64,000 nt of DNA from Patescibacteria group bacterium. GTDB lineage: Bacteria > Patescibacteriota > Patescibacteriia > 2-12-FULL-57-11. A program made the position numbers and the translations under genes. Numbering within the stretch: the stretch's first letter is position 1; every line of letters starts with the position of its first letter. The notes beneath the pieces were generated by a model. It had not been told where the DNA came from, searched no databases, and saw nothing but the letters and a program-made list of their open reading frames with translations. The stretch covers positions 7,442 to 71,441 of the forward strand of contig JBBUJK010000029.1 in assembly GCA_038054875.1 (NCBI GenBank). Reading direction: 5' to 3'. Positions 4,019 through 45,834 of the stretch are shown here, piece by piece.

Positions 4019-4489
4019 ATGAGCAATCGGCACCTCGCGCGAACGATCGCCATGCAGGTCCTCTACCAATGGGACTTCAACGGGCAGAAGCCCGATGACG
4101 TCCCGGGCGTTTTGTCGTATCAGATCAAAGAGTTCGCGCCGGAGTTCAATGACAAGGGCTTTATCCAAGAACTCCTGGACGGCGTCCTTCAGCACCAAAA
4201 GGAAATCGACGAGACCATCATCACGTACGCGCCGGAGTGGCCGCTCGAAGCCATTACCCTCGTCGACAAGAACATCTTACGACTCGGTATTTCGGAGCTT
4301 CTGTATTCGGAGACCATCCCTTCCAAGGTGGCCATCAACGAGGCCATTGAGCTGGCCAAAACCTTCGGCGGCGAATCGTCCGGTCGATTCGTGAACGGCG
4401 TGCTCGGCGCGATATATCGGGATCGTGTCTCTGCCGGCCAATTGAAGAAGGTGGATCTCGAGCCGTCTAAGCCTCCAACCCATGAGTGA
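4019..4489 (+). CDS. nusB: transcription antitermination factor NusB
   Basis: [14 protein letters not shown] at the N-terminus and RFVNGVLG at the C-terminus are NusB hallmarks. Confidence 0.85.
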
Positions 4490-5171
4490 CCTTTCCGTGC
4501 TGGAAGCGCGCCTCGGCGTGCATTTCAAGAATCAGGAGAACTTGCGCCAGGCATTGGTGCATCGCTCCTATCTGAATGAACATCCGGAGTTTCCGCTTGG
4601 TCACAACGAGCGGCTGGAGTTTTTGGGTGACGCCGTGCTCGAGCTTGTTGTCACGGAATTTTTATATCGGACCTACCCGAACCCGGAAGGCGAACTCACC
4701 AACTGGCGCGCGGCGCTCGTAAATGCGGTGATGCTTGCTGAGGTGACCGGTGAACTCGAGGTCGAAGAACATCTCTATCTTTCGCGCGGTGAATCCAAAG
4801 ATGCCGGCAGCAAGGCGCGCCAGTACATTTTGGCAAACGCGTTTGAAGCGATCGTTGGCGCGTTGTATCTCGATCAGGGCATGGAAGCCTGCCGCGGGTT
4901 CATCGACGCCAAGCTTCTCACGCGTCTGCCCTACATTTTGGAACATCAACTCTATCTCGATCCCAAGAGTCGTTTTCAGGAGGCGGCGCAGGAGCAACTC
5001 GGCATTACCCCGAATTACAAAGTGCTCGAAGAGTCAGGCCCGGATCATGCGAGACACTTTATCGTCGGCATTTTTCTAGGCGATCAACTTGTGGCCAAGG
5101 GTGAAGGCACAAGCAAGCAGGAAGCGCAGGTCGCTGCTGCAGAAAAGGCCATCGGCGTGAAGGGTTGGTAA
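4482..5171 (+). CDS. rnc: ribonuclease III
   Basis: RNase III signature [20 protein letters not shown] plus a C-terminal dsRBD. Overlaps the nusB stop by 8 nt. Confidence 0.9.
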
Positions 5172-8785: not shown

Positions 8786-10594
8786 ATGGAACGCCGCAAC
8801 GTCGCCATCATCGCCCACGTCGACCACGGCAAAACAACGCTGGTGGACGCGCTCTTGAAGCAGTCGCATACCTTTCGGAATGCCGATGCCATGGGCACCA
8901 CGATCATGGACTCGAACCCCCTCGAACGCGAGCGGGGTATTACGATTTTTGCGAAGAACGCATCCATCGTCTGGAAGGACGTGAAGATCAACATTGTCGA
9001 CACGCCGGGCCACGCCGACTTCGGCGGCGAGGTGGAGCGCATCATGAATATCGTGGACGGCTGTTTGCTTCTTGTGGACGCCAAAGAAGGGCCGATGCCG
9101 CAAACCAAGTTTGTGCTCAAAAAGGCCATCGAGGCAGGTCACAAAATTATCGTGGTCATCAACAAGGTCGACAAGAAGGACGCCCGCCCGGAATGGGTGC
9201 TCGGCAAGACCTTTGATTTGTTCGTCGATCTCGGCGCTTCGGACGACCAGGCCGACTTTCCGGTGATCTACGCCTCGGCCGTGAACGGCATCGCCGGCGA
9301 GACGCCGGATATGGCCGCCATGAAGGACATCAGCCCGGTCCTCGATTTGATCGTCGCCAAGATGCCGTCGTCGAAAGGCGATCCGAATGCACCGTTGCAG
9401 ATGTCGGTCGTGAACGTGGCCTACGACAACTACAAAGGGAAACTCGCCATCGGCCGCATCATTGCCGGCCGCATCGCCATGGGTCAGGGCGTCATGCACA
9501 TCGCGCGCGATGGCAAGCGCACCCCGGCCAAAGTGACGTCGCTCATGGCGTTCAGCGGCCTGGAGCGCCAGGAGATTCCCGCCGCCGATGCCGGGGAGAT
9601 TGTCTCCGTGGCCGGCATTGCCGACGTGCAAATCGGGGAGACGATTGCTGATCCGATTGACTCCCAGGCACTGCCGATCATCACCATCGAAGAGCCGACC
9701 GTGAAAATGAACTTCTCGGTCAACACGTCGCCTTTTGCCGGCAAGGAAGGGCAGTATTCGACTTCCCGCAACATCAAAGAGCGTCTGGAGCGCGAACTCA
9801 TGACCGACGTGGCGTTGCGTATGGGGCCTGGTCAGAGCGCCGAGACGTTCGTTGTTTCCGGCCGCGGTGAATTGCATTTGGAAATTCTGATCGAGAAGAT
9901 GCGCCGCGAAGGATATGAGTTTCAAGTCTCGCGTCCGCAGGTGATTTTCCACGAGGATGGTGGAAAAAAGTCGGAGCCGTTTGAACAGGTGTTCATCGAG
10001 TGCCCGGAGAACACCGCGGGTTCGGTCATCGAAAAAATGGGCAAGCGCAAGGGCGAGATGAAGGACATGAAGATCGATTCCGGTACGGCCATGCTCGAAT
10101 TCGACGTTCCCACGCGCGGACTCATCGGCTACCGCGCGGAATTCCTGACGGACACCAAGGGGCTTGGCATCATCAACTCGCTGTTTTTGGGCTATCGGCC
10201 CTGGATCCCCGGATTCGAGTCGCTGCCGCATGGTTCCTTGATCGCCTTCGAAGACGGCACTGCCATGGGCTATGGTCTCGCCGCCGCGCAGGAACGCGGA
10301 CAGATGTTCATTGGTCCTGGTGTTCATGTCTACCATGGCATGGTCGTCGGCCAGAACGCGAAACCTGAGGATCTGGAAGTGAACGTGGCCCGCGAGAAGC
10401 GCTTGTCGAACATGCGCTCCAAGGGCGACGGCGCCGGCATCCGCCTCGACACGCCGCGCGATATGTCGCTTGAAGATGCCCTCGAATATCTCGGTGACGA
10501 TGAGCTTCTGGAAGTGACCCCGCTTTCCCTGCGGATCCGCAAAGCAACGCTCGATCCCATCGAACGCAAGCGCACCGCGCGCATTGCAGAATAA
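8786..10594 (+). CDS. typA: translational GTPase TypA/BipA
   Basis: 602 aa. [35 protein letters not shown] and NKVDK match the BipA family. Confidence 0.9.
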
Positions 10595-10834
10595 GAGACC
10601 CACTCAGAGTCTTGGCCGGGTTGACAAAGCCCGGCTTTTCTGATAGTTTATAGCGTTTCGTACCACGCCTGCACATGGCTCGCAGGGGTGGCGATTCTGC
10701 GATAGGGGACGGTCATTTGGACCGTTCGTCTCTCCCGAATTTTTACGAACGGCATCCACTAGGGATGGCGGGCGTAAGGCATTCGTTCGAGACAACATGA
10801 CCGGCCAGGCGGAAACCTGGAACAACGAGGCTAA

Positions 10835-12229
10835 ATGCGACATGGGATTCTGCTCTTCGCACTGCTCTGTGCGGCGTGCTCCACCGAGCGCGTCGAGGTC
10901 ATCCACGAGATGACCGGCTGCACGGCCGACGCCATGTGCGACGACCGCGACGACGAGACCAGCGACTGGTGCGAGGCCGATTCCGGCTTCTGCAGCCACG
11001 AGCGCACCGTCGTCGGCGGGCTGTGCGCAAGCGCGGCCGACTGCGACGACGGCGACGCGGCGACGGTCGATGCCTGCGAAGGCGGCGACTGCCACCACAC
11101 GCGCGACGTCACCGCGCCCTTCGATCCGGCCGCGCCGGAGCGGCAGGACGCGTACCTGATCTGCGAGACGCCCAGCATGCGTGACGTGGCTCCCGTGGGT
11201 GCGCTCACCGCAGAGCTCATCCTCGAGGGCTGCTACGAGCCGGCGTTCTGGAACGAGACGGGGTACCGCATGACTGCGGTGATCCGCGGTCTCGAGCCCG
11301 ATGAGAGCCTTCCGGTTCGCATCGCGCCGCAGCTGCGGGTCGGTGATCCGAGCGATCGGTATCACGTCACGGTCAGCACCCTCTACAGTTCCGGACTGAC
11401 CACTCTGGAGCGCGTGTCTCTCGCCGGAGACTTCTCCGTTGCGGAGATCGAGGCGGGTCTCGAGGTGACGGTTCCGGGATCGCCTTCCGGTCCGGTCGTG
11501 GGCGGCGCGCAGGTCATCTTGCGCTTCCAGCCGATCGGAGAGGTGCGATCGCGCACCATCCAGTGGGCGCTCCCACCGGACGGAGTGACGCGGCTCGACG
11601 GAGGGACGCCCATCCATACGTGGCCGGCGTCTTCCTCCTTCATGCGCGTGCCGCGCCACGGATTCCTCCGCATCAACGAAGGGTCCGGCGGCGAGGCGCA
11701 GTGTACGGGAGAGCTGCGCACGCTCGACGTACCGCCGTCTGGCTACATCCTCGGCGGCCTGGTGCGTGAGGAGTCCGATCCGGAGATCTTCTATCTCACG
11801 GATTTCGATTCGCCGCGGCGCCTCTACGAGTTCCAGGGCCTGCGGGGGGCGATCGACTGGTTCGGTTGGTGGGAGACCACCTGCGCCCAGGTCAGCGTCG
11901 TCCCCGACGGCAGCTTGGATGATCCGGGATTCGTTCGCGCGACGGTCGGTCTCCGTCCCGGCACCAGCGTGACGTGGTACGACCCGACGAGCGGCGTGCG
12001 GCGCTTCGGCTACACGGATCGCAATTTCGTGATTCGGGATACCGACGGAGTGGTCTCGGGGGTCGCCTGTTCCCGGTATCCTTCCTGGAGCGGAGATCTC
12101 CGCGGCTGCGAGCTCGACATCACGAGCATGCTCGCGGAGTACACCGTGATGCTGGCGACCGAGCCGTATCCCGACCTCGACCAGCTTCGGGCCTGGTCGA
12201 TCCAAACGTACGACGGCGGCAGTCCGTAG
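10835..12229 (+). CDS. Cys-rich lipoprotein with MopE-like putative metal-binding motifs
   Basis: Lipobox LLCAACS. Repeated C-x-DC-DD/DDxD spacing (CTADAMCDDRDDETSDWCEADSGFC; CASAADCDDGDAATVDACEGGDC). GC about 70%. Confidence 0.5.
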   Translation: MRHGILLFALLCAACSTERVEVIHEMTGCTADAMCDDRDDETSDWCEADSGFCSHERTVVGGLCASAADCDDGDAATVDACEGGDCHHTRDVTAPFDPAAPERQDAYLICETPSMRDVAPVGALTAELILEGCYEPAFWNETGYRMTAVIRGLEPDESLPVRIAPQLRVGDPSDRYHVTVSTLYSSGLTTLERVSLAGDFSVAEIEAGLEVTVPGSPSGPVVGGAQVILRFQPIGEVRSRTIQWALPPDGVTRLDGGTPIHTWPASSSFMRVPRHGFLRINEGSGGEAQCTGELRTLDVPPSGYILGGLVREESDPEIFYLTDFDSPRRLYEFQGLRGAIDWFGWWETTCAQVSVVPDGSLDDPGFVRATVGLRPGTSVTWYDPTSGVRRFGYTDRNFVIRDTDGVVSGVACSRYPSWSGDLRGCELDITSMLAEYTVMLATEPYPDLDQLRAWSIQTYDGGSP

Positions 12230-15202: not shown

Positions 15203-16468
15203 ATGCGCTACTCCCAGCTGTTCGCCAAGACCTCGAAGACCGTGCCGCACGACGCCGACTCCGCCAACGCGCGCTTCTTGGTGCAGGGCGGCTTTGTGAG
15301 TCAGCTCGCCGCTGGCATCTACACGTATTTGCCGTTCGGTTTGCGCGTCCTCGATAAGATCAAGAACATCATTCGCGAGGAGATGAACGCGCTCGGTGCA
15401 CAGGAAGTGCTCATGCCTGCACTCACCCCGAAGGAGCCCTGGACCGTGACCGGGCGCTGGAATGAGATCGACGTGTTGTTCAAGCTCGAGGGTCACGGCG
15501 ACAAGGAGTACGCGCTCGGCTCGACGCACGAGGAGATTGTGACGCCGCTCGTGCAGCAGTTCGTGAAGTCGTACAAGGATTTGCCGACGAGCGTCTATCA
15601 GATCCAGGACAAATTCCGGAACGAACCGCGCGCGAAGTCCGGCTTGTTGCGTGGCCGCGAGTTTTCGATGAAGGACATGTACAGCTTTCACCTCACGGAA
15701 GCGGACTTCGAACAGTATTACGAGCGTGCCAAGGAAGCGTATTTCAACGTCTACCGCCGCTGCGGGCTTGAAGCGCTCATCGTCGAAGCATCGGGCGGCG
15801 CGTTCTCCAAGTTCAGTCATGAGTTTCAAGTGCTGACAGACTCCGGCGAAGACCTGGTGTTCCACTGCGCCTGCGGCTTTGCGCAGAACAAGGAAATCGC
15901 CGAGGTGAAAGAAGGCGACACTTGCCCGAAATGCGGAGAAGGGAAGATTGCAGCGGACAAAGCCATCGAGGTCGGCAATATCTTTCCGCTCAAGAGCCGC
16001 TTCACCGACGCATTCAACTTTAAGGTCGCAAGTCAGGATGGCAAGCCGCAGCCAGTTCTCATGGGCTGCTACGGCATCGGTCCTTCGCGCGTCATGGGCA
16101 CGATCGTCGAGGTCCACCATGACGACAAGGGGATTGTCTGGCCGCGCGGCGTGGCGCCGTTCGATATCCACGTCGTCTCGATCGGCGGCAAGGATTCGGA
16201 GAAGGTGATGGCTGCGGCGGAAGCACTCGTCAAAGACATCGAGGCTACGGGACTTGAGGTGCTTTGGGATGACCGCGACGCGCCGCCGGGCGAGAAGTTC
16301 GCCGACGCCGACCTGATCGGCATCCCGTTGCGGCTTGTCGTGTCCGAAAAGTCGCTCGCGAAAGACGTCGTCGAGTGGAAGGAGCGCGGCAGTGAGAAAG
16401 CCGATCTCATCCCGAAGAACGATTTGATCGAGGCCGTGCGCGCTTGGGTGGGGCTGCGCGTCGCATAA
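15203..16468 (+). CDS. proS: prolyl-tRNA synthetase (short form, no editing domain)
   Basis: 421 aa. Class II aaRS motifs (FRNEPRAKSGLLRGREFSMKDMYSF; GCYGIGPSRVMGTIVE) and C-terminal anticodon-binding domain. Confidence 0.9.
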   Translation: MRYSQLFAKTSKTVPHDADSANARFLVQGGFVSQLAAGIYTYLPFGLRVLDKIKNIIREEMNALGAQEVLMPALTPKEPWTVTGRWNEIDVLFKLEGHGDKEYALGSTHEEIVTPLVQQFVKSYKDLPTSVYQIQDKFRNEPRAKSGLLRGREFSMKDMYSFHLTEADFEQYYERAKEAYFNVYRRCGLEALIVEASGGAFSKFSHEFQVLTDSGEDLVFHCACGFAQNKEIAEVKEGDTCPKCGEGKIAADKAIEVGNIFPLKSRFTDAFNFKVASQDGKPQPVLMGCYGIGPSRVMGTIVEVHHDDKGIVWPRGVAPFDIHVVSIGGKDSEKVMAAAEALVKDIEATGLEVLWDDRDAPPGEKFADADLIGIPLRLVVSEKSLAKDVVEWKERGSEKADLIPKNDLIEAVRAWVGLRVA

Positions 16469-16792: not shown

Positions 16793-17617
16793 TTACACCG
16801 TGACGTATTCTTGCAAACGTTCGATGTGCGTGGCATGTCCGGTCGCGGGATCAACGGTGATGTGCAAGCCGTTCACGACGGCGTACCCGCTCTCCGGCAT
16901 CTCGGCGCCGTGAAGTTGTTCTCCTGCGCGGAATGCCGCGAGCGGTGCTGCTTTCTCGATGCCGATCACCCCGTCTGCGAAGCCGGTCATGCCGACGTCG
17001 GTCTGGTAGGCAGTGCCTGGCGGCAGAATGCGCGTGTCCGCGGTCGACACGTGGGTGTGCGTTCCCCAGACGGCGCTGGCCCGGCCCGCAACGTACCAGC
17101 CGAAGCCGACGCGTTCCGAAGTGATTTCTCCGTGCAGGTCGACGAGCACGATCTTCGCCTCAGGATGTTCCGCGACGATGCGGTCAAAGGCAGTGAAGGG
17201 GTTTGCGACCAGTTCCCCATCGCGCATCTTCACCTGGCAGAGCAAGTTTACCACAAGCACTGGCGTGCCGCCGACATCGACGACAACAATGCCTTTACCC
17301 GGCCGATCATCCGAAAAGTTGGCGGGTCGGAGCACGCGGTCGCGCCAGAGCGGATGCGCGAGCATCATCACGCCGTGTCCTTCGAACGTGTGGTTGCCGC
17401 CGGTCAGGAGCTGAACGCCAGCATCAAAGAGTTCCTGAGCTGTTGACTCCGTAATGCCTTTGCCGTGTGCTAGGTTCTCGCCGTTGGCGATGATGAGGTC
17501 CGGCGCGTACTTTTTTTTCCAGGCGGGGAGTACGACCGCGAGCGCGCGTCGTCCGACGCGGCCCATGACGTCCCCGAAGACGAGGATCTCCACCTGTGGT
17601 GAGCGGAGTCGAACCAT
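16793..17617 (-). CDS. ymdB: YmdB-like metallophosphoesterase (2',3'-cyclic nucleotide phosphodiesterase family)
   Basis: ILVFGDVMGRVGRRAL...IANGENLAHGKGIT matches TIGR00282-type YmdB. Lies immediately downstream of rny, as in Firmicutes. Confidence 0.8.
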   Translation of the reverse strand: MVRLRSPQVEILVFGDVMGRVGRRALAVVLPAWKKKYAPDLIIANGENLAHGKGITESTAQELFDAGVQLLTGGNHTFEGHGVMMLAHPLWRDRVLRPANFSDDRPGKGIVVVDVGGTPVLVVNLLCQVKMRDGELVANPFTAFDRIVAEHPEAKIVLVDLHGEITSERVGFGWYVAGRASAVWGTHTHVSTADTRILPPGTAYQTDVGMTGFADGVIGIEKAAPLAAFRAGEQLHGAEMPESGYAVVNGLHITVDPATGHATHIERLQEYVTV

Positions 17618-17621
17618 GCGT

Positions 17622-19145
17622 TTAGCGCGCTGTTTCGATGACGCGCGTTTCGCGGATCACGGTGACGCGGATTTCTCCGGGATATTTCAGCTCAGCTTCG
17701 ATCTTGCTCGCGATCTCCTTGGCGAGCTTGTACGCGGCGAAGTCATCGACCGCCTTGGGCGACACGAAGACGCGCAAGTCGCGGCCGGCCTGGATGGCGT
17801 AGGCCTTCTCGACGCCCGGGAACGACGTTGCCACGTTCTCGAGTTCCTCGAGGCGGCGGACGTATTCAGCGAGCGTGTCCTTGCGCGCGCCCGGGCGGGC
17901 GCCGCTGATCGCGTCGGCGGCCTTCACAATCACGGCTTCCAACGTCTTCGGTTTATCCTCATGATGGCCGATCGACTGGTAGCAGAGCTCTTCCGGGAAA
18001 CCGAACTTCTTCATGATGTTGTAGCCGATCTCCGGGTGAGAACCCTGGATGTCGTGGTCCACGGCTTTGCCGATGTCGTGGAACAGGCCGCCTTTTTTAC
18101 AGACAGTGATGTCAGCGCCGAGCTCTTCGGCCATGAGGGTCGAAAGCTGCGCCACTTCCATGGAGTGCTGGAGCGCATTCTGTCCGTAGCTGGTGCGGAA
18201 CTTGAGACGACCGAGGATCTGGATGAGCTTCGGATCAACGCCGGTGATGCCGAGTTCGTACAGCGCTTCTTCGCCGGCCTTCCGCATGTCGTTGTTCAAC
18301 TCTTTCTTTGCTTCGTCGACCGCTTCCTCGATGCGGCCCGGGTGGATGCGCCCGTCCGCCAAAAGCTTGTCGAGCGCGCGTTTGGCAATCTGACGGCGCA
18401 CCGGAGAGAAGCCGGAGATAGTGATGATGCCCGGCGTGTCGTCAACGATGAGTTCGCAGCCCGTGAGGTTTTCAATGGCCTTGATGTTGCGGCCTTCCTT
18501 GCCGATGATGCGGCCCTTCATGTCGTCGGCGGGCAGCTGCACCGAGGTCGTCGTGGTGTCGACGGCGTGCGAGGAAGCCAGGCGCTGGATGGTCGTGGCC
18601 AGAATGTTCTTGGCTTTGACTTCAAGCTCCTCGGCCGTGACCTGCTCGAGTTTGCGGATGCGTGAGACGATTTCTTCCTTCTGCGATTCTTCGACGAGCG
18701 CCGTGATGCGCTCGATAGCTTGCTCGCGGGTCAACCCCGCGATGGCCTGGAGTTTCTCAATCTGTTCTTCTTTCAGTTTATCGATGGAGGAGCGATCGGC
18801 TTCAACGGCCGCGGCTTTTTCCTGGAGCTTCGTGATTTTATCCTGGAACTCCATGAACTTCTGATCGAACAGCGTTTCGCGCTTCTCAAGCCGCTGTTGC
18901 GTCTCGGTCACTTCGTTGCGGCGGGTGGCGGCTTCGCGTTTTCCTTCTTCAACAATTTTTAGCGCCTTGTCGTTGGCATCGATCGCAAGCTGCTGCGCCT
19001 TCTTCGTGGCTTCGTTCACGATGTGACCGGCTTTGGCTTCGGCCGAGCCGATCTTTCCTGCGGCCAGTTTCTGCCGCAGGACATAACCAACAGCCCCACC
19101 GGCCAGAAGGCCGCCGAGGAGGAAAAGAATGGTGAACGGGGACAT
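17622..19145 (-). CDS. rny: ribonuclease Y
   Basis: N-terminal TM helix, coiled coil, KH domain (GRIIGKEGRNIKAIENLTG) and HD domain (LFHDIGKAVDHD). 507 aa. Confidence 0.9.
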   Translation of the reverse strand: MSPFTILFLLGGLLAGGAVGYVLRQKLAAGKIGSAEAKAGHIVNEATKKAQQLAIDANDKALKIVEEGKREAATRRNEVTETQQRLEKRETLFDQKFMEFQDKITKLQEKAAAVEADRSSIDKLKEEQIEKLQAIAGLTREQAIERITALVEESQKEEIVSRIRKLEQVTAEELEVKAKNILATTIQRLASSHAVDTTTTSVQLPADDMKGRIIGKEGRNIKAIENLTGCELIVDDTPGIITISGFSPVRRQIAKRALDKLLADGRIHPGRIEEAVDEAKKELNNDMRKAGEEALYELGITGVDPKLIQILGRLKFRTSYGQNALQHSMEVAQLSTLMAEELGADITVCKKGGLFHDIGKAVDHDIQGSHPEIGYNIMKKFGFPEELCYQSIGHHEDKPKTLEAVIVKAADAISGARPGARKDTLAEYVRRLEELENVATSFPGVEKAYAIQAGRDLRVFVSPKAVDDFAAYKLAKEIASKIEAELKYPGEIRVTVIRETRVIETAR

Positions 19146-19431
19146 AGGGGGTCAGGGCAGACCGCGCCTGAACCCGCTGCCGAAAACGCCGGGAGACTTA
19201 ACGCAAAACCTGGTGGCGTTCTGCCACCTTCGGGTCGGAAAAAGCGGACGATGCGTAAGCGTTCCTCATGGCGAGATTGTCGGCAACAAGCACAACCAGC
19301 ACGGAATACTGCCGTTACGTCGAGTCAAGACTTCTGGTGCGACTCTAGCACGGGGGTTGACCCCGGGCAAGAATTGTGGTAGGTTGCGCGGTCTTTCCGG
19401 GATCGTATTCCCCCCGGAAAGTGGAGGTTAC

Positions 19432-20475
19432 GTGGCTGTAAAGAAGACCGAGATTGTGATCCCGCGGACCGGGATCATGGGCTGGGTCGCGGCCGAAGTG
19501 CTCACGACCCATCCGGATCTTGCCGCGCAGGTCGCGGCGGATGCCCGGATTCGACGAGCAGCGGTGGGCCCTGAGTGGCGCCGGGATGTGCCCGAAGCCG
19601 GGGACCTCCCGGCGGACGAGTACGAGGTTCGGGCGCGCGCCATCCTGGTGAGCGTCTGCCCCGAGGAAGGCTGCATTGGCCAACGGGAGATCCTGACCTC
19701 GCCGGACTACGGACTGGCTGGGCTGTCGGAGCTTTTGGTCGGAGACCCGACGGCGCGCGACCCGCAGTTCGGTACGTTCCCCGGGACGCTCTCGGAGACT
19801 GCGCAGGCGCTGTGGGATTTGGCCGAGGGTGGGACGATTCCTGCTGCTGAGGCCGAAGCAACCTGTCGCTTCCTGGCTCGCGCCGCGTTGGCGCGATTCC
19901 GGGCAGGGAATGCGGTGGCAGCCGACATGAACGCGCTGCCGCTCAGGGCATTCATTCGTGCGCCGGGCACGCCCTGGCTCCACGAGCGGACCTTCGCCCG
20001 CGCCGGCGTGCATCTGCATCAGATGCGCAAGGCAGCGGCCCGCGACTGGCGTGTGGGTCGCGGACGGATCATTCCGGTGGCAACGCCGCAGGGGACGATC
20101 AAAGTCGCGGTCTGCCGGAGCAGTGCTCCGCATCTCGCGCAGTGGCTGTTCGAGAACGAAGCGCCGAACGTGGTGCTCCGGCTCGAGGACGGCGGCTTCT
20201 TCTGCCGCGCCGACAAGAACAGCGGTATCACCCTGCACCGCGCCGTCGCCGCTTGGCGTCGCGCCGCGCTCGATCGGCCGCTGACCGAGGACGAGGAAGA
20301 CGCGCTCGAGGAGTACGGCCGGCCCTTCGGGACCCCCATCGACTTCTGGTGCGACGACCTCACGGCGGGCAACAAGATGCTCGCCAACCCCCATCTCCCG
20401 GCGGTCGCTATCGACCCCGAGAAGATCGTGGAGATGCTCATCACTTCGTTCGCCGTCGTGGCGGAGGAGTGGTGA
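19432..20475 (+). CDS. hypothetical protein (347 aa, Ala/Arg-rich)
   Basis: GTG start after the GGAGG RBS and a promoter TTGACC-N17-TAGGTT at 19357. GC about 68%. No recognised domain. Followed by the hairpin/T-tract GAGG..CCTCTTTTTTT. Confidence 0.45.
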   Translation: MAVKKTEIVIPRTGIMGWVAAEVLTTHPDLAAQVAADARIRRAAVGPEWRRDVPEAGDLPADEYEVRARAILVSVCPEEGCIGQREILTSPDYGLAGLSELLVGDPTARDPQFGTFPGTLSETAQALWDLAEGGTIPAAEAEATCRFLARAALARFRAGNAVAADMNALPLRAFIRAPGTPWLHERTFARAGVHLHQMRKAAARDWRVGRGRIIPVATPQGTIKVAVCRSSAPHLAQWLFENEAPNVVLRLEDGGFFCRADKNSGITLHRAVAAWRRAALDRPLTEDEEDALEEYGRPFGTPIDFWCDDLTAGNKMLANPHLPAVAIDPEKIVEMLITSFAVVAEEW

Positions 20476-20526
20476 GCCTCTTTTTTTATCCTGAGCGGCA
20501 GTCGAAGGATGGCTCCCTCGACTCAC

Positions 20527-20555
20527 TCCGTTCGCTCGGGACAGGGTTGACAAAA
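20527..20555 (+). promoter_or_regulatory. consensus sigma70 promoter TTGACA-N17-TATAAA
   Basis: TTGACA 20527-20532, 17-nt spacer aaaccgttcttttcagg, TATAAA 20550-20555. The -35/spacer is nearly identical to the promoters at 27165 and 37195. Confidence 0.55.
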
Positions 20556-20783
20556 CCGTTCTTTTCAGGTATAAAGATATGTCTTCTCAATGGCCAGTCG
20601 TGCCACCTGGAGAAGGCTTTGAACCTTGAAAATTCAAGGAAAAAGCAGACGGGTCGCCGACCGTGGGAATCTGTATGGTTTCCAGGGTTGGTGGCCCGTC
20701 CATGGTGGAATGGGGCCTGTGTTCGAGTGAGTGAATATTTGGCCGAAAGGCCGTGCGCTCCGTAAGGAGCAAAGAGGAGTGCC

Positions 20784-22844
20784 ATGAAAGCACTTGTCGA
20801 TCGTCTCGCGAACCAGAACCTCAAGTCCGCAGCCCTGCCCGTGTCGGTCACGCCTCCCAAGGCGGAGCCGGTGAAGGTGCAGGCGGCGGTCGCCCTCACC
20901 ACGAAGTCGGCCAAGGCGCCGCGCCAGCCGCTCGAGCGAGCGGAGCGTATCGCCCACACACTGATCACCGCGCTCTTCGGAGCCAGCATGGCCAAGGCCG
21001 TTCGTTCGAAGGAGCTCAAGGCCGAGCGCGAGGATCCGCTCCGTGAGGAGCGGGCCCTGCTGCGCACGGCCCACATCCACGACGAGACCAACCAGGAAAT
21101 GATCATCGCGATGGCGAAGGTCTTCCGAGTCGAGCTCAAGTGGATGGTCGATGAGCACGCGGGGTTCAAGCGCCCCGTGCGCCCGGTGACGGTCATCCAC
21201 CCGCACACCAACATCGATGCGGAAGCCGCGTGCATGACGTGGCTGCTCGTGCGCAAGCCCGAGCTGCGCAGCCGCTTCAACATCGCGCCGGACGTTCACG
21301 TCGAGTGCGTGAAGTCCGGCGAGCTGACCGAGGAGGCGGCAACGCCGTCGCTCGAGGACATGCCGAAGGCGTTCCTGACGTCGAAGCACCTCGAGGAGTA
21401 CGGCCACCTCTTCGTCGATTGCGGCGGTGGAGGCGGTCGGCTCGACCAGCACGGGCGCGTGGAGAACAAGGGACGCAACACCGTCTCCTCCCTGCACCTG
21501 CTGATCACCGGCGCGCTCGACCACATCCCGTCCCTCGTCCACCTGGTCCCGCTCTTCGAGCAGGTCATCGACAACGACCTGACCGGAGAGCGGATCGCGC
21601 AGGGCTACAACCTGCGCGAGTTCCTGAACGGCCTCATTGAGCTCGGCCTGAGTTCTGAGGAAATTCTCGATTACCTCTTCGTCGCGTTCGACGCGGCAGA
21701 GGCCTTCCTGCTCGCCAAGCAGGAGGAGATCGAGGAGGACGATGCCACGGCGATCGACCGCTTCCGCGAGGTGCGCAAGCAGGTCCTCTCGATGGAGACC
21801 ATCCTCGGGAACCTGCGCGTGCCGACCGACGCCGACCTCCAGCAGGAGGCCGACGCCGAGGTGCGCTACCTCCTCAAGGAGGCCGAGCGCAGCGGCATGC
21901 CGATGCCGGCCGACGAGCGCGAGCAGTTGCTCGCCGTCAGCCTGCAGAACGGCCGCGAGCGCGCGCAGCACATCGGCGTCTTCCACGATCGCTTCCGGGC
22001 GGTCGAGCAGGAGGCCAAGGCGGCGCGCCAGGCGGCCTGGGAACAGGCCAACACCGACTGGGGGCAGGCGGAGGTCCGGCTGCTGAACGGCGGCAATGCC
22101 TTCGTCTTCTCGAAGCAGGAGATGAGCATCCCCGGGCGGCCGTTCCACGGCTACGAGGGGCGCGTCGGCCTCGTCATCGGCGAGAGCGGCACCGCGAGCT
22201 TCGGCCCGTGCTGCCGCTACCGCTACGGCAAGGAGACGCGCAACAAGCTGGCTCGCGAGCACCTGATGGGGCGGACGGTGTCGTTCGACACCGCACGCAA
22301 GGCGGCGCATCTGTACGCGCCCGCGCTCATCTCGGTCCAGCTGCGCGACGTGACGCGCGGCGCGGATGGCAAGGTCGTGAGCTATCGCTTCACGATCGCG
22401 GGTTCCGGCATCGACCTCACCCAGGTCGCCGTTGCGATCCGCGACAGCCACGCCCACTGGCTCGCCAAGGAGCAGGGCGCCACGCAGATCAACAACGTCG
22501 GCGTCCAGGCGCGCTCCATGACCGCGCGGCTCAAGGGCAGCGCGGACACGGTCGCCGTCGACTATCTCCCGGAGTTCCGTACTGTGTACGGAAACTGGTT
22601 CAAGACGAACCAGGAGATGCCACTGTGGACCATGCCGGTCCGCATCCTCCTCGAGGCAATCGAGGTCGGCATGGAGGCCAGCGCCGAGGTGACGGAGCGT
22701 CGCCTGCGCGAGCGGCACTTGCACCCGAAGCGCCTCATCGCACCGGTCTACGAGCGGATCGATGAACTCAAGAGCGCCACGCGCGCCCCGAAGCAGGGAT
22801 CGTCTTCCCCGGCTCCGGAGACCAAGCACGAAGACAACGACTGA
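20784..22844 (+). CDS. hypothetical 686-aa protein (possible degenerate DHH-like phosphoesterase motifs near the N-terminus)
   Basis: Long ORF with a good start context. VIHPHTNIDAEAA, FVDCGGGGGRLDQHG and similar segments loosely resemble DHH motifs I-III. GC about 67%. Flanked by direct repeats. Confidence 0.5.
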   Translation: MKALVDRLANQNLKSAALPVSVTPPKAEPVKVQAAVALTTKSAKAPRQPLERAERIAHTLITALFGASMAKAVRSKELKAEREDPLREERALLRTAHIHDETNQEMIIAMAKVFRVELKWMVDEHAGFKRPVRPVTVIHPHTNIDAEAACMTWLLVRKPELRSRFNIAPDVHVECVKSGELTEEAATPSLEDMPKAFLTSKHLEEYGHLFVDCGGGGGRLDQHGRVENKGRNTVSSLHLLITGALDHIPSLVHLVPLFEQVIDNDLTGERIAQGYNLREFLNGLIELGLSSEEILDYLFVAFDAAEAFLLAKQEEIEEDDATAIDRFREVRKQVLSMETILGNLRVPTDADLQQEADAEVRYLLKEAERSGMPMPADEREQLLAVSLQNGRERAQHIGVFHDRFRAVEQEAKAARQAAWEQANTDWGQAEVRLLNGGNAFVFSKQEMSIPGRPFHGYEGRVGLVIGESGTASFGPCCRYRYGKETRNKLAREHLMGRTVSFDTARKAAHLYAPALISVQLRDVTRGADGKVVSYRFTIAGSGIDLTQVAVAIRDSHAHWLAKEQGATQINNVGVQARSMTARLKGSADTVAVDYLPEFRTVYGNWFKTNQEMPLWTMPVRILLEAIEVGMEASAEVTERRLRERHLHPKRLIAPVYERIDELKSATRAPKQGSSSPAPETKHEDND

Positions 22845-23057
22845 TCGCCGGTTCGCCGGAGGTCGCGTCGGACCCGCCTGTGAGCGTCGCACTTGTGCGA
22901 TGCTCCGGGCGGTTCTTTTTTATCCTGAGCGAGCGGTAGCGAGTCGAAGGATTGGCCCTTCGACTACCGCTTAGGGCAAGATCGAAGGATTACGCCGTCG
23001 CGTACCAGACCCAGACGCCGGCCATGACAAACAGGGCGAAGACGACCCAGGCGATGT

Positions 23058-23738
23058 TTATTTCCATAGGAATGTTTTCCAGGTTTCCGGTGTTAGACGT
23101 TCAATCGGCATGGCATCGCTCACTGACCTGTTTCCACTTTTTGTTCGACGCAGAGCCGTGAGATAGCCGCCGGTGCCGAGGCGTTCACCGACGTCGCGTG
23201 CCACGGCACGCACGTATGTGCCGGTCGAGCAGGTGAGCGTGAAGTCGACGTCCGGCCAGGCGATGCGCGTCACCTCGATTACGCGAATGGTGATTTCCGT
23301 TGGTTTGGCTTCGACCGGCGTTCCGGCGCGCGCGAGATCGTACATTTTTTTCCCGCCGATTTTTTTGGCCGAGTAGGCGGGCGGTACTTGCTGCCGTGTG
23401 CCGACTTCGGCGGCGAATGCGGTGCGAATATTCTCAGTTTTTGGTTGCCCCTCGACGCGGCTCGGGGAAATTTTTCCGGTGACGTCGTCGGTGTCGCTCA
23501 TGCCGTCAAAACGCGCGGTTGCCACATATTCTTTTTCTTGTTTTTGAAACTCGCTCAGCCGCTTCGTGGCTTCGCGCCCGATGCCGACGATGAGCAGTCC
23601 GGTGGCAAACGGGTCGAGCGTACCGGCATGGCCGATCGTTTTCACGCCGGTGATGCGCCGGAGCTTGGCCACGACGTCATGCGACGTCCAGTCAACCGGC
23701 TTGTCGATGGCGAGAAACCCCGACGGAACAGCATCCAT
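23058..23738 (-). CDS. truB: tRNA pseudouridine(55) synthase TruB
   Basis: [23 protein letters not shown]...[13 protein letters not shown]. The six-frame ORF starts at 23813, but its 5' part runs through a REP-like repeat; the start was moved to the internal ATG at 23738 ([14 protein letters not shown]). Confidence 0.8.
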
Positions 23739-23767
23739 AGGTCGCGCATGATAGCACTCGTGTTGGA

Positions 23768-23843
23768 CTCCCTCCAGCTCCCTCTTCGCAAGAGGGAGAG
23801 TATGCGCGGGCAACCCCCTCTTGTGAAGAGGGGGAAGGGGGAG
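23768..23843. repeat. REP-like double-hairpin repeat, copy 1
   Basis: CTCCCTCTTCGCAAGAGGGAG ... CCCCCTCTTGTGAAGAGGGGGAAGGGGGAG. The same element occurs at 34488 and 37094. Confidence 0.7.
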
Positions 23844-23892: not shown

Positions 23893-25896
23893 ATGAACGT
23901 CACCGAACTGGCCCGCAAATTGCGCGTCACACCTGAAGACTTGCGCGGCATTTTGCCGGACGCCGGCTTCGACGTGGGGCGGCGCGCCATCAAGATCGAC
24001 GACCGCACCGCCAAGAAGGTCATGGAGTCCTGGCCGCAGATTGCGCAGCTGTTGGAAAAGAAGCGCATCGCCGCAAAGGAAGCCGCCGCCGCCGAGCTGA
24101 AAAAACTGGCCACGGAGCGCGGGCCGGTGCAGTTGCCGCCCGTCATCACGGTGCGCGATTTTGCCGCGCGCCTGGGTCTGCCGGTGACCCGCGTCATCCA
24201 GGAATTCATGAAGAACGGCATCCTTGCCCCGTTGAACGAGCGCGTCGACTACGACACGGCCTCGATCATTGCCGCGGACCTCGGCTTTGAAGTGAGTCCG
24301 CTCGCAGAAGGAGACGCGCCTGTTGAAGTGCTTTCGACCGGCGACATCATCAAGGAAGCGCTCGGCGCCGAAGCCAAGGGCACGCTCGTGGCGCGCCCGC
24401 CGGTCATCGTGGTCATGGGCCACGTTGACCACGGCAAAACAAAACTGCTCGACACCATCCGTTCGGCCGACGTTGCCGCCGGCGAAGCAGGCGGCATCAC
24501 GCAGCACATCGGCGCCTACCAGACGCAGAAGAACGGGCGCCTCATCACCTTCATCGACACGCCGGGTCACGAGGCCTTCACGGCCATGCGTTCGCGCGGC
24601 GCCAAAATCGCCGACATCGCGATTCTCGTCGTCGCCGCCGACGACGGCGTGCAGCCGCAGACCAAGGAAGCCATCAAGATCATCGAGGCGGCTCACCTGC
24701 CGTTTGTTGTCGCCATCAACAAGGTCGACAAACCGGACGCCGATCCGGAGCGCGTGAAGCGCGAGCTCTCTGAATTGAACGTCCTGCCCGAAGAGTGGGG
24801 CGGCAAAATTCCGATGCAGCCGATTTCCGCGAAGACGGGTTTGAACATCGACAAACTTTTGGAACTTATTTTGCTCGTCGCCGACGTCAAAGCCGATGAG
24901 ATCATGGCCAACCCGAATCGTCACGCGCAGGGCACGGTCATTGAATCGCACGTGTCGCCCGGCGAAGGCGTCGTCGCCACGCTCCTCGTCCAGAACGGCA
25001 CGTTGAAGCGCAACGAAGAGTTGGCCATCGGGAGCAACTCGTACGGTCGGGTGCGCGCCATGAAGAACTACCGCAACGAGAATGTGGACACCGCGACGCC
25101 TGGGACGCCGGTCCGCATTTTGGGTTTCCGCGTAGCGCCGCAGGTCGGCGACGTCGTAGAAGTGCCGGCAGCGGGGATGAAGCTGGAGCGGGTGCGCGAG
25201 CTGCGCGCCACCGGCGAGAAGATCGCCACGGTCGAAAAGACCTCTGCGGAAGATGTGGAAGAGAAGAAGTTCATGCCGCTCATCATCAAGGCCGACGTGC
25301 TCGGTTCGCTCGAAGCCATTCTCGTGTCCTTCGAAAAGTTTTCGCACCCGGAAGTGGGTTTGAACGTCGTCTCGAAGGGCCTCGGCAACATCACGGAAGC
25401 GGACGTGCTGCGCGCGGAAGCAACGGGCGCCCATGTCATCGGCTTCAACGTCCTCGTGCCGCCGCCGGTGGCTGAGTTGGCCCGCGAGAAGAACGTTTCC
25501 GTGAAGACCTACAAGATCATTTACGACCTGTTCGACGACCTGACCGCTCAGCTCGAAGGCATGCTCACTCTGGAAGTCGTGCGCACCGACTTCGGCCGTC
25601 TCCTGATCCTGAAAATTTTCCGCACGGAGCGCGACGAACAGATCGTCGGCGGCCGCGTCGAAGACGGACGCATCGTGAAGGGACTCTCTTTTGAAGCACG
25701 CCGCGGCGGCGAGGCGTTTGCGAAGGGCGAGGTCAAGACGGTGCAAAGCGGCAAACAGGAAGTGCCGGAACTGCGCATGGGTTCTGAAGGCGGCATGAAA
25801 GTGAAAACGTCCGCGCCCCTCGCAGAAGGGGACTCGATGCTCTTCTATAAGGAGGAAAAGAAGACGCGTAAAATCGTCTTCGATAAACCGAAATAG
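23893..25896 (+). CDS. infB: translation initiation factor IF-2
   Basis: 667 aa. G-domain [32 protein letters not shown], plus C-terminal beta-barrel domains. Confidence 0.9.
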
Positions 25897-27164: not shown

Positions 27165-27193
27165 TTGACAAAACCGTTCTTTTCTGCTATATT
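27165..27193 (+). promoter_or_regulatory. consensus promoter TTGACA-N17-TATATT (same family as 20527 and 37195)
   Basis: TTGACAaaaccgttcttttctgcTATATT. Confidence 0.55.
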
Positions 27194-27195
27194 AG

Positions 27196-27345
27196 GCCGT
27201 TGTTCTTTATCATGGTGGTATGTTGAAAGCGGCGTTTTGGGGCTTTTTTGAAGGCCCGAGAATGCCGTTTTTAACAGGTTGGTCCGAACTCGCGCTGGTG
27301 CGCGGGAGAGGGCTTGTCTGGCGGCGGTCGGAAGGTAGGTCAGCA
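27196..27345 (+). ncRNA. conserved 5' leader shared with the 37225-37351 leader (candidate cis-regulatory RNA)
   Basis: Blocks GGCCGTTGT / GCGGCGTTTT-GGGCTTTT-GGAAGGCC / GCCG(C)TTTT-ACAGGT are conserved between the two leaders. Both end in a GC hairpin plus SD. Confidence 0.35.
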
Positions 27346-34426: not shown

Positions 34427-35257
34427 ATGCGCGCCATACTGCTCGTCATTGCCGTTCTGCTTGCAGGGGCGGGATGCGTGCCATTGCAAACTCCCCCTTC
34501 CCCCTCTTCGCAAGAGGGGGTTGCCGGAGCATCACTCCCCCTTGTGAAGGGGGAGACGGAGGGAGTCCCTGAACTGCGCGTCCCCGTCCTCATGTACCAC
34601 CACGTCGGCACTGTACCCGCGCGTGATCCGTACGGGCTGTTCGTTTCGACTTCGACCTTCCGCGCCCAGATGCAGGCGCTCAAGGACGACGGCTGGAGCG
34701 TCGTGACCATGCCGGCGCTTGCGGACGCGCTCGAGGGAAAACAAACGCTGCCGAAAAAATCCGTTGTCATCAGTTTCGACGACGGCAACCGCGACACGTC
34801 CACGGGTGCATTCCCCATACTCCAGGAATTCAGATATGACGCAACGGTCTTCGTCATGACCGGTCCGTCCGGCAACAAGGCCGCGTCTTATCTGCCGCCG
34901 GATCTGCTGCGCGAGTTGATGGACGCGGGATGGACGATTGCGCCGCATACCCGCTGGCATGAGACGCTGACGCGTGTACCAGAAGCGCTTGCCCGCGAAG
35001 AGGTCGTTTCGTCGGTCGAGTTTCTTGCGCGCGAGGTCGGCGTGCGCGAGCCGTATTTTGCGTATCCAAACGGCGAAGAAAACGAAACGGTGCGCGGTTT
35101 CCTGCGCGAGGCCGGTATCCGCTATGCCTTCACCATTCACGAGGGTGTGGTGACGACGTCGAGCGATCCGTTGGCTTTGCCGCGGCTGCGCATGGGAGAA
35201 GATTACGGCGTCCAGAAATTTCTGGAACGGTTGCGTGCCGCTGCGGTACGTGGCTAG
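34427..35257 (+). CDS. polysaccharide deacetylase (NodB-family) lipoprotein
   Basis: Lipobox LLAGAGC, NodB motifs VVISFDDGNRD and HTRWHETL. The N-terminal linker contains an in-frame REP-like repeat. Confidence 0.75.
   Translation: MRAILLVIAVLLAGAGCVPLQTPPSPSSQEGVAGASLPLVKGETEGVPELRVPVLMYHHVGTVPARDPYGLFVSTSTFRAQMQALKDDGWSVVTMPALADALEGKQTLPKKSVVISFDDGNRDTSTGAFPILQEFRYDATVFVMTGPSGNKAASYLPPDLLRELMDAGWTIAPHTRWHETLTRVPEALAREEVVSSVEFLAREVGVREPYFAYPNGEENETVRGFLREAGIRYAFTIHEGVVTTSSDPLALPRLRMGEDYGVQKFLERLRAAAVRG
34488..34575. repeat. REP-like double-hairpin repeat, copy 2 (inside a coding linker)
   Basis: CCCCCTCTTCGCAAGAGGGGG ... CCCCCTTGTGAAGGGGGAG. Translated in-frame as ...PSPSSQEGVAGASLPLVKGETEG. 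Confidence 0.65.
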
Positions 35258-37093: not shown

Positions 37094-37188
37094 GGACTCC
37101 CTCCGTCTCCCTCTTCGCAAGAGGGAGGGAAACCCGGGTAACCCACCTCGGCAGCCCCCTCTTTGTGAAGAGGGGGGAAGGGGGAGTA
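37094..37188. repeat. REP-like double-hairpin repeat, copy 3
   Basis: CTCCCTCTTCGCAAGAGGGAGG ... CCCCCTCTTTGTGAAGAGGGGGGAAGGGGGAG. Confidence 0.7.
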
Positions 37189-37194
37189 TGGACC

Positions 37195-37223
37195 TTGACA
37201 ATTCGGGCTTTTTCTGTTATATT
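37195..37223 (+). promoter_or_regulatory. consensus promoter TTGACA-N17-TATATT
   Basis: TTGACAattcgggctttttctgtTATATT. Near-identical to the promoter at 27165. Confidence 0.55.
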
Positions 37224-37224
37224 T

Positions 37225-37351
37225 GGCCGTTGTGGAATGCGGCGTTTTTGGGCTTTTGGAAGGCCTTAGGACGCCGCTTTTCACAGGTGAGCCGATTCCG
37301 GGGCGTTTCCCGGAGGAGGTCAGCCGAGGCGGTGACAGGAGGGTGAGCCAC
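37225..37351 (+). ncRNA. conserved 5' leader, paralog of 27196-27345
   Basis: Same conserved blocks as the 27196 leader, including the GCGGCG...CGCCGC stem, a CCGGGgcgttTCCCGG hairpin and SD GGAGGG. Confidence 0.35.
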
Positions 37352-45512: not shown

Positions 45513-45834
45513 TCCTGCCGCGCCGCTCTTTAATACTGGACAAAGCGAGATATTCGGGCTATGTTGGGGGTAGCCTCATGTGCTCTCTGGCATTGGTTTC
45601 GGGACAATCCTACTTCATTGGGAGTCCCTTTCCGCGGTCTTTCTGACCAGGTCTCCGGGCTCGGCCGGGACGATACGCGCAAGGGATGCGGTCCCCGCAC
45701 CACGGGGAATCCACCGCGCCTTTTTATCCGTCGTCCGTGGACGTCGGATGCGGGCACCCACGTGGCTTTTAGCCGAAACCAGTATCAGCACGAGTCGTGA
45801 GGCCTTTAAGTTCCAAATACCGTAATCGCTTTTC

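Follow-up and report, generated by a model that had tools for sequence, protein, structure and literature searches.

The closest described counterparts of the RNA considered here include the RNase III-dependent autoregulatory leaders of Escherichia coli pnp and rnc, the 5'-terminal stabiliser stem-loops of the E. coli ompA 5' untranslated region and of the Bacillus subtilis aprE and ermC leaders, and the translational operators in which the Shine-Dalgarno sequence (SD) and the start codon lie within a hairpin, as in the MS2 replicase operator, thrS, and ribosomal-protein leaders. To our knowledge, almost nothing is known about gene regulation in Patescibacteria, also termed the candidate phyla radiation (CPR). 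In a 64,000-nt stretch of a Patescibacteria genome (assembly GCA_038054875.1, contig JBBUJK010000029.1; hereafter the window), a leader of about 200 nt separates a consensus promoter from an uncharacterised gene of 686 codons, here called gene Y. This leader is very probably a real regulatory RNA; it falls within the broad class of structured cis-regulatory 5' leaders, as a member that has not been described before.

The stability of the predicted fold provides the first line of evidence. Between the predicted transcription start and the AUG, the leader folds into six hairpins (elements named as in Table 1) with a minimum free energy (MFE) of -101.5 kcal/mol, compared with -66 +/- 4 kcal/mol after dinucleotide shuffling (z = -8.4; none of 200 shuffles folds as stably), and it ranks among the top two most structured of 3190 GC-corrected 206-nt windows drawn from both strands of the 64 kb. 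Given that the reverse strand is far less stable (-68.3 kcal/mol, z = -3.8), the leader is a plus-strand RNA structure rather than a DNA palindrome, and the five G.U pairs of P3 likewise make that hairpin specific to the plus-strand RNA. An initial annotation of the window had drawn attention to the density of stems ahead of gene Y, and both this stability and a conservation above that of the coding sequence (described below) bear out a real, selected, structured RNA; the stems listed there are all present and need only small corrections. The supposed perfect 7-bp hairpin CCTTGAA-aa-TTCAAGG is present as a 6-bp stem (CCUUGA/UCAAGG, 20624-20629/20634-20639) with an AAAU loop inside P2, and GACGGG...CCCGTC, read at first as a long-range stem, forms the base of the continuous 23-bp P3 and surrounds no unpaired sequence. 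The GGCC-GAAA-GGCC hairpin was correctly placed (P5), although its GNRA-type loop is not conserved, reading GAAA, GAAA, and CAAU (the last in locus L003) above an invariant stem in the three close sequences. Three hairpins can be added to those listed earlier, namely P1, P6, and the hairpin joining the SD to the first codons.

Conservation among close orthologues constitutes the second line of evidence. The close group (group A) comprises three sequences: the window, L001 (GCA_004297205.1), which is the closest sequenced relative, and L003 (from a Logan assembly). A word-indexed protein search of 5.8 billion clusters returned just two other proteins at least 67% identical to the gene Y product; repeat searches with a 24-sequence profile and with P0006 added nothing, and a genome scan with an 8-sequence alignment yielded 6 loci, of which one (L013) supplied a new usable leader. 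No copy of the leader was found in a scan of viral contigs, nor elsewhere in the window or in the orthologous loci. Between orthologues the leader is 88-93% identical, compared with 77-84% for the coding sequence of gene Y and 63-71% for its four-fold degenerate sites, and the DNA 5' of the -35 element cannot be aligned (100-nt indels). As leader identity exceeds that of both coding and four-fold degenerate sites, the leader is under purifying selection stronger than that on the protein. The expectation, set out with the initial annotation, that a functional leader would be conserved in orthologous loci is thus borne out, with a few compensatory changes preserving stems.

The substitutions that have occurred are located in stem positions where pairing is kept, in the loops of P3, P5, and P6, and in the linker at 20718-20740; the stem changes include several G-U/A-U exchanges. 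P1 is invariant in the three orthologues save one U-A to U-G change and one loop change; the inner hairpin and loop of P2 are invariant, while its outer stem shows one double change and two broken cells; and P3 is identical in length throughout, with one C-G to G-C double change and, at its base in L001, an A-U to G-C replacement. Under the six-hairpin model, 98.9% of cells are paired across the three sequences, as opposed to 35-53% when the partners are slid by 1-3 columns. The search for covariation proposed with the initial annotation therefore produced compensatory changes, in P3 and P2, that are consistent with the structure, although their number (weighed below) does not make them significant.

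Distant orthologues retain the arrangement of the leader and little of its sequence. The gene Y products of group A are 67-100% identical to that of the window and are preceded by a leader of about 200 nt. Those of group B (L007, which equals L008, and L013, a Ca. Uhrbacteria locus whose best segment is 34% identical), group C (L006), and group D (L017) are about 24%, 24-29%, and about 23% identical, respectively, and in each case the same promoter is followed by a leader of 180-215 nt with the same layout (z from -3.9 to -6.7). This layout opens with a hairpin located at the 5' end or close to it and continues with a CU-rich tract, a single long hairpin of 18-28 bp, and one or two more hairpins; a short GC hairpin directly ahead of the SD completes it. 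In groups B and C (L007, L013, and L006), a run of 5-7 U stands after this last hairpin, which scores as terminator-like, whereas in groups A and D the hairpin lacks a terminator-like U-run; the initial annotation's suggestion of an attenuator accordingly finds an echo in the distant leaders and none in the leader of the window, where no intrinsic terminator occurs on the plus strand of 20581-20783 and P6, which occupies the position of those terminator-like hairpins, is followed by AAAGAGGAG. Within group B, L007 and L013 differ by compensatory double changes at five pairs, and five one-sided changes leave the helix of the CU-rich tract with the SD intact; a candidate antiterminator pairing in this group amounts to just 5-6 bp of GC-rich complementarity and was considered unconvincing. 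Group E (L009 and L010, the most distant orthologues, about 24% identical) has no leader and an X-Y gap of only about 55 nt, so that the RNA acts as a regulator rather than as a partner which the protein always needs.

There is no demonstrable sequence homology between the group A leader and those of groups B, C, and D: the MAFFT alignment is confined to the promoter and the last hairpin, nhmmer with a group A profile finds no match in the B, C, and D leaders, and a group A covariance model (R1) places L013 at the right coordinates with 7.7 bits and E = 0.23. By these three methods no nucleotide core conserved between groups A, B, C, and D was found, which argues against a classical metabolite aptamer; a layout kept without sequence fits recognition of shape, or of a protein co-evolving with the RNA.

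The promoter ahead of the leader is well defined. Its consensus, TTGACAA-N16-TATRNT, occurs six times in the window against 0.11 occurrences expected by chance, and the first 20 nt of the 20547 copy are identical at 20 of 20 positions to the promoter at 27165. This consensus is specific to the genome and often has a T-rich spacer and a TG ahead of the -10 element; a generic promoter scan missed the copy at 20547-20575 solely because the last -10 base is A. The position of the promoter is conserved in every orthologous locus with a leader (L001, L003, L006, L007, L013, and L017). From the geometry of the promoter, transcription would start at about G20581, and a 5' GUCUU(C/U)U is common to the leaders of groups A, B, and D.

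The ribosome-binding site appears to be enclosed in structure under every fold that was predicted. With the first codons added to the folded sequence, the SD pairs with GCACUUGUC at a probability of 0.97-1.0 in all three close orthologues, and L001 and L003 extend this initiation stem by different insertions that are matched by an AAA-to-AAG or a GCA-to-UCA change. When the coding arm is left out, the MFE structure closes the whole leader through a helix between the 5' CUUCUC and the SD GAGGAG, so that CUUCUC has two possible partners, GAGAAG (in P1) and the SD, to which it is also complementary. RNAalifold further predicts a 16-bp interrupted helix (20592-20610/20700-17) that replaces P1 and closes a junction around P2 and P3; the two conformers lie 2-3.5 kcal/mol apart in all three orthologues. 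Both strands of this long-range helix are nearly invariant and contain no compensatory changes, and the helix is put forward as a hypothesis; the existence of near-isoenergetic conformers could be the reason for the invariance of those segments.

The reading favoured here, to which a probability of about 45% is assigned, is that of a cis-acting 5' leader that controls gene Y post-transcriptionally through masking of the SD, processing or binding of P3, and protection of the transcript end by P1. According to this model, the promoter would fire at about 20581 and the first 200 nt would fold co-transcriptionally into P1, P2, P3, P5, and P6. The ribosome-binding site would be masked in vivo by default: in the full-length mRNA the SD would pair with codons 3-6, and ahead of the transcription of those codons it could pair with the invariant 5' CUUCUC that is otherwise held in P1, while P1 would shield the end of the transcript. 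We infer that a macromolecular factor, and not a metabolite, determines expression, and both the identity of this effector and the direction of regulation are given here as predictions. One of the two most plausible candidate effectors is the genome-encoded RNase III (4482-5171, plus strand; Ribonuclease_3, E = 1.7e-36; dsrm, E = 1.1e-14), which would cut the two-turn P3 duplex, a substrate of the type that this enzyme recognises; alternatively, an RNA-binding protein, possibly the gene Y product, would hold or open the structure. A cis-regulatory leader in which shape counts for more than a universal nucleotide core is indicated by the combination of very strong selection within a narrow clade, a layout kept without sequence, the dispensability of the leader in the most distant orthologues, and a last hairpin that is either SD-proximal or terminator-like. 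Leaders to which proteins or RNases bind typically show this pattern, whereas metabolite aptamers typically do not.

A census of hairpins of at least 18 pairs, in which those flanked by A-tracts and T-tracts were counted as terminator-type, adds a wider context to this reading. The only non-terminator hairpins of at least 23 pairs in the 64 kb are three leader hairpins (20648, 27216, and 37230), each of which lies 3' of a consensus promoter. This distribution hints at a mechanism shared by the three long-hairpin leaders, and the leader of gene Y may be one case of a wider, undescribed habit of placing leaders with hairpins of about 24 bp behind consensus promoters.

Several considerations weigh against post-transcriptional control by SD masking and P3 recognition. 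The covariation that agrees with the structure comprises just two double changes in three sequences, and 51 of 500 shuffles score as well. A tertiary fold that binds a ligand would also be compatible with the near-invariant loops and linkers of group A. The initiation hairpin, at -21.7 kcal/mol against a median of -16.7 kcal/mol, is only about 0.7 standard deviations more stable than a genomic background that is itself crude, its control set being contaminated with open reading frames (ORFs) that are shadows of opposite-strand genes. As the SD is paired in both near-isoenergetic conformers, any switch logic is putative. Finally, the transcription start, the cleavage site, and the binding factor are all predicted or proposed.

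Table 1. Positions of the leader elements, neighbouring genes, and related promoters and leaders in the window.
Feature	Positions	Strand	Description	Basis
Class II aminoacyl-tRNA synthetase gene	15203-16468			
ymdB	16793-17617	minus		
rny	17622-19145	minus	RNase Y	
Gene X	19129-20475	plus	Gene without assigned function; stop codon 20473-20475	
End of gene X	20430-20487	plus	Imperfect hairpin and, after it, T7 (20481-20487); the transcription unit ahead of the leader has a terminator-like end here	Sequence reading, hairpin census
Promoter	20547-20575	plus	Sigma-70-type; -35 TTGACA 20547-20552, 17-nt spacer, -10 TATAAA 20570-20575	
Predicted transcription start	20581-20583	plus	G20581, 6 nt past the -10; transcript would start GUCUUCUC	Promoter geometry
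Leader	20581-20783	plus	About 200 nt, from promoter to gene Y start codon	
P1	20583-20615	plus	5'-terminal hairpin; CUUCUC 20583-20588 with GAGAAG 20610-20615, inner UGGC/GCCA stem	
P2	20616-20646	plus	Outer GCUUU...AAAGC stem around CCUUGA-AAAU-UCAAGG (20624-20639)	
P3	20648-20700	plus	53-nt hairpin of 23 bp (15 bp, G.G mismatch, 8 bp) with 5-nt loop	
Long-range helix, 3' strand	20700-20717	plus	CCAUGGUGGAAUGGGGCC; predicted alternative pairing with 20592-20610 (GGCCAGUCGUGCCACCUGG)	RNAalifold
Variable linker	20718-20740	plus	Sole indel-rich stretch of the leader	Alignment
P5	20741-20752	plus	GGCC-GAAA-GGCC hairpin	
P6	20757-20770	plus	GCUCC-GUAA-GGAGC hairpin, 3 nt 5' of the SD	
SD	20774-20779	plus	GAGGAG; ATG at 20784	
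Initiation-region hairpin	20774-20798	plus	SD and UGC paired with GCACUUGUC (codons 3-6); AUG 20784-20786 in the loop	
Gene Y	20784-22844	plus	686 aa, uncharacterised family, presumed controlled gene	
truB	23058-23813	minus		
infB	23893-25896			
TTGACAA-N16-TATRNT copies	8114, 20547, 27165, 30988, 37195, 45537	plus	Consensus promoters	
Long-hairpin leader	27165-27281	plus	Promoter followed by leader with hairpin 27216-27281	
Long-hairpin leader	37195-37286	plus	Promoter followed by leader with hairpin 37230-37286	

Known RNA families offer no match to the leader. A search of the whole window at the Rfam gathering score recovered tRNAs only, and a permissive search of 20440-20860 (E <= 10, relaxed filters) returned only chance matches of microRNA hairpins to P3 and a match to the ROSE_2 thermometer; covariance models of riboswitch families, T-box, 6S, the signal recognition particle (SRP) RNA, and other small RNAs were absent from the matches listed at E <= 10, and the leaders of the relatives likewise gave nothing beyond chance matches at that threshold. 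The Infernal scan suggested with the initial annotation therefore returned no significant family. The annotation's tentative comparison of one segment with ZTP motifs fared no better, the segment being the 5' arm of the long hairpin. ZTP (RF01750) gave no match at the gathering score in the window or at E <= 10 in 20440-20860, and for the pseudoknot strand (CCGCCUGGGC-like, 3' of a GGGUCG...GAC sub-domain) the best candidate within 20576-20800 has 3 mismatches in 10 and stands at an unrelated position (20603). The purine/folate or one-carbon gene context of that family is also missing, as gene Y falls into no Pfam, NCBIfam, or PADLOC family and is surrounded by rny, ymdB, truB, and infB. The leader is accordingly not assigned to ZTP, T-box, 6S, or the known thermometers.

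With the families thus surveyed, the alternatives to SD masking and P3 recognition can be weighed. One that retains some plausibility while remaining unlikely is a constitutive structural leader that senses nothing, stabilises the mRNA against 5'-end-dependent RNases, and permanently damps the translation of a transcript made from a very strong promoter. The distance from the predicted 5' end to P1 is 2 nt, and the counterparts of P1 in groups B and C begin equally close to theirs; rny is a near neighbour, two genes off; all predicted conformers pair the SD; and other strong-promoter transcripts in the window begin with long hairpins, suggesting a genome-wide habit. Nevertheless, a 5' hairpin alone would suffice for such a role, so that 200 nt with near-invariant loops and linkers at 88-93% identity go unexplained, and the terminator-like hairpins of groups B and C imply conditional read-through.

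No less doubtful is the more ambitious proposal of a new class of regulatory RNA restricted to Uhrbacteria-like Patescibacteria, of which this leader would be the first example, be it a riboswitch or a feedback operator bound by protein Y, that would act through a translation platform in groups A and D and through termination in groups B and C to control the gene of unassigned function in the rny, X - Y, truB cluster. The narrower proposal of a new metabolite or ion riboswitch, in which P1 (or the long-range helix), P2, and P3 would form the aptamer and P6 with the SD the expression platform (regulating translation in this leader and termination in those of groups B and C), is regarded as rather improbable, and as less likely than control by a protein or RNase. 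It could account for a pair of mutually exclusive conformers, close to each other in energy, that draw on the most invariant segments, for the invariance of loops and junction nucleotides in group A, for related leaders with a terminator-like or SD-proximal platform, as in many riboswitch classes, and for a P6 with GNRA loops (GUAA, GCAA). It is hard to reconcile with the lack of any Rfam match, with the absence of a core common to groups A-D noted above (nhmmer empty; the covariance model below significance at 7.7 bits), and with a very narrow spread of 3 loci across 5.8 billion proteins and the DNA scans; furthermore, a 23-bp hairpin is unusual for an aptamer, the SD is freed in neither conformer, and gene Y has no known metabolic role.

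A further step down in probability leads to an independent small RNA of about 190 nt, acting in trans, in a 6S-like manner, or as a protein scaffold, and co-transcribed with gene Y by chance. Although the strong consensus promoter, the extreme stability, and the terminator-like hairpins of groups B and C, which would release an RNA of about 185 nt, are what such an RNA would call for, the leaders of the window and of group D have no terminator, the SD lies just 3 nt past P6, no 6S, SRP, or other small RNA family matches, and the leader is always found with gene Y and is absent where X and Y are fused into one operon. This proposal is held to be improbable, and still more so is an RNA thermometer, in which the hairpin enclosing the SD and AUG would melt upon warming: the match to ROSE_2 (RF01832) is sub-threshold (14.6 bits, where the gathering score is 65; E = 2.7), the source is a groundwater organism, as the contig name 'Hain-H41' of L004 suggests, for which thermally stable conditions are expected by our own reasoning, and 170 nt of additional conserved structure would be unneeded. 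Least credible of all is a lack of regulatory function, with the stems being palindromes that arose by chance or part of a repeat element, or the region being a short upstream ORF, given a conservation greatly above that of neutral sites, the absence of other copies from the window, loci, and viral contigs, and the nature of the two short ORFs present, the first of which (16 codons from 20579, MSSQWPVVPPGEGFEP) begins no later than the predicted transcription start, lacks an SD, and is altered non-synonymously in 2 of 3 changed codons, while the second (10 codons from 20702) is frameshifted in L001.

The genomic setting of the leader is conserved across the family. The order rny, X - Y, truB is kept in the family loci, gene Y always lying between truB and gene X, which is equally uncharacterised, near rny and ymdB, and the T-run after gene X is present in all orthologues. 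The metagenome contig ERZ1292625 ('Hain-H41', L004), the sole locus found again by a pattern scan of metagenome DNA, is identical to the window. Read at 448 aa (19129-20475), gene X overlaps the start of rny (19145); as its orthologue in L001 is called at 369 aa and leaves a gap of about 280 nt after rny, the true start of gene X is probably later than 19129. In this genome of 60% GC, many long ORFs in the mechanical list are shadows of opposite-strand genes, such as 17454-18665 (plus) opposite rny and 20634-22892 (minus) opposite gene Y. In L001, an insertion between truB and infB carries a diversity-generating retroelement (10511-11906; bAvd and reverse transcriptase) and two more genes without assigned function; the window has no such insertion.

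The gene Y product is 100% identical to 'MAG: hypothetical protein AAB974_03025 [Patescibacteria group bacterium]'. It has no match in Pfam, NCBIfam, or PADLOC, nor in PDB by sequence or profile search, and no Pfam domain occurs in any of the 35 representatives that a full HMMER search assigned to its family. An AlphaFold2 model built with 24 sequences reached a predicted local distance difference test score (pLDDT) of 81 (a 3-sequence model, at pLDDT 39, was useless), and Foldseek comparison of this model with PDB and viral structure libraries gave no significant match; a family II pyrophosphatase appeared at a non-significant E = 0.24. The conserved motifs of the family (H-x-NPD-x-EA, DCGGG-x2-3-LDQHGRPEN, and ND-x-TGE) resemble, at the motif level only, those of DHH/MYG1-type phosphoesterases. 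Autoregulation by protein Y is accordingly offered as speculation.

Other structured regions occur on the plus strand of the window. The consensus promoters at 27165 and 37195 are almost identical to that at 20547, and behind each lie GGCCGUUGU and a hairpin of 25-29 bp; these leaders can be aligned to one another, neither matches Rfam, and the genes that follow have no assigned function, with predicted N-terminal regions that are weakly similar (28% identical over 81 residues, part of which is translated leader). A hairpin motif repeated at 34499-34556 and 37096-37190, and built on CCCTCTTCGCAAGAGGG / CCCCCTCTTTGTGAAGAGGGGG, may be a terminator or a repeat element; the segment 37081-37330, which holds the second copy of the motif and the 37230 hairpin, folds with -127 kcal/mol (z = -5.8). 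Lastly, a gap of about 265 nt (45566-45834) separates a weaker promoter match (45537-45565) from the DEAD-box helicase gene at 45835-47433; it folds with -111.6 kcal/mol (z = -4.1), and a further long, structured leader may lie there.

Selection on the leader above that on the protein marks an uncharacterised, CPR-restricted gene as tightly controlled and provides an experimental handle on it. Should P3 prove to be the target of RNase III or another protein, or should the leader sense a ligand, it would represent a lineage-specific regulatory RNA in a minimal-genome organism, and the two further long-hairpin leaders in the window suggest that the mechanism may be general.

Comparison with the systems introduced at the outset places the leader among them without equating it to any. 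With pnp and rnc it shares a long leader behind a strong promoter, a near-perfect hairpin of about two turns (23 bp with one mismatch here), a genome that encodes RNase III, and a neighbourhood of RNA metabolism (rny, truB, and infB); it differs in having no sequence similarity to them, a cleavage target that is predicted only, a protein Y that is no known ribonuclease, and five further conserved hairpins. Riboswitches with alternative platforms, including ZTP/pfl (RF01750), likewise present a conserved multi-stem leader directly 5' of the SD with predicted alternative conformers, yet here there is no covariance-model match, ZTP pseudoknot, core across distant orthologues, or candidate ligand. 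The stabilisers of ompA, aprE, and ermC are single hairpins, whereas this leader extends over about 200 nt with six stems whose loops are among the conserved sequence; as in those systems, a hairpin begins no more than about 2 nt from the predicted 5' end, here in groups A, B, and C, and the organism encodes RNase Y. Unlike the MS2, thrS, and ribosomal-protein operators, the initiation hairpin mimics no known RNA ligand, has a stability ordinary for the genome, and has a binder that is only putative; as in those operators, a conserved hairpin carries the SD in its 5' arm and the AUG in its loop.

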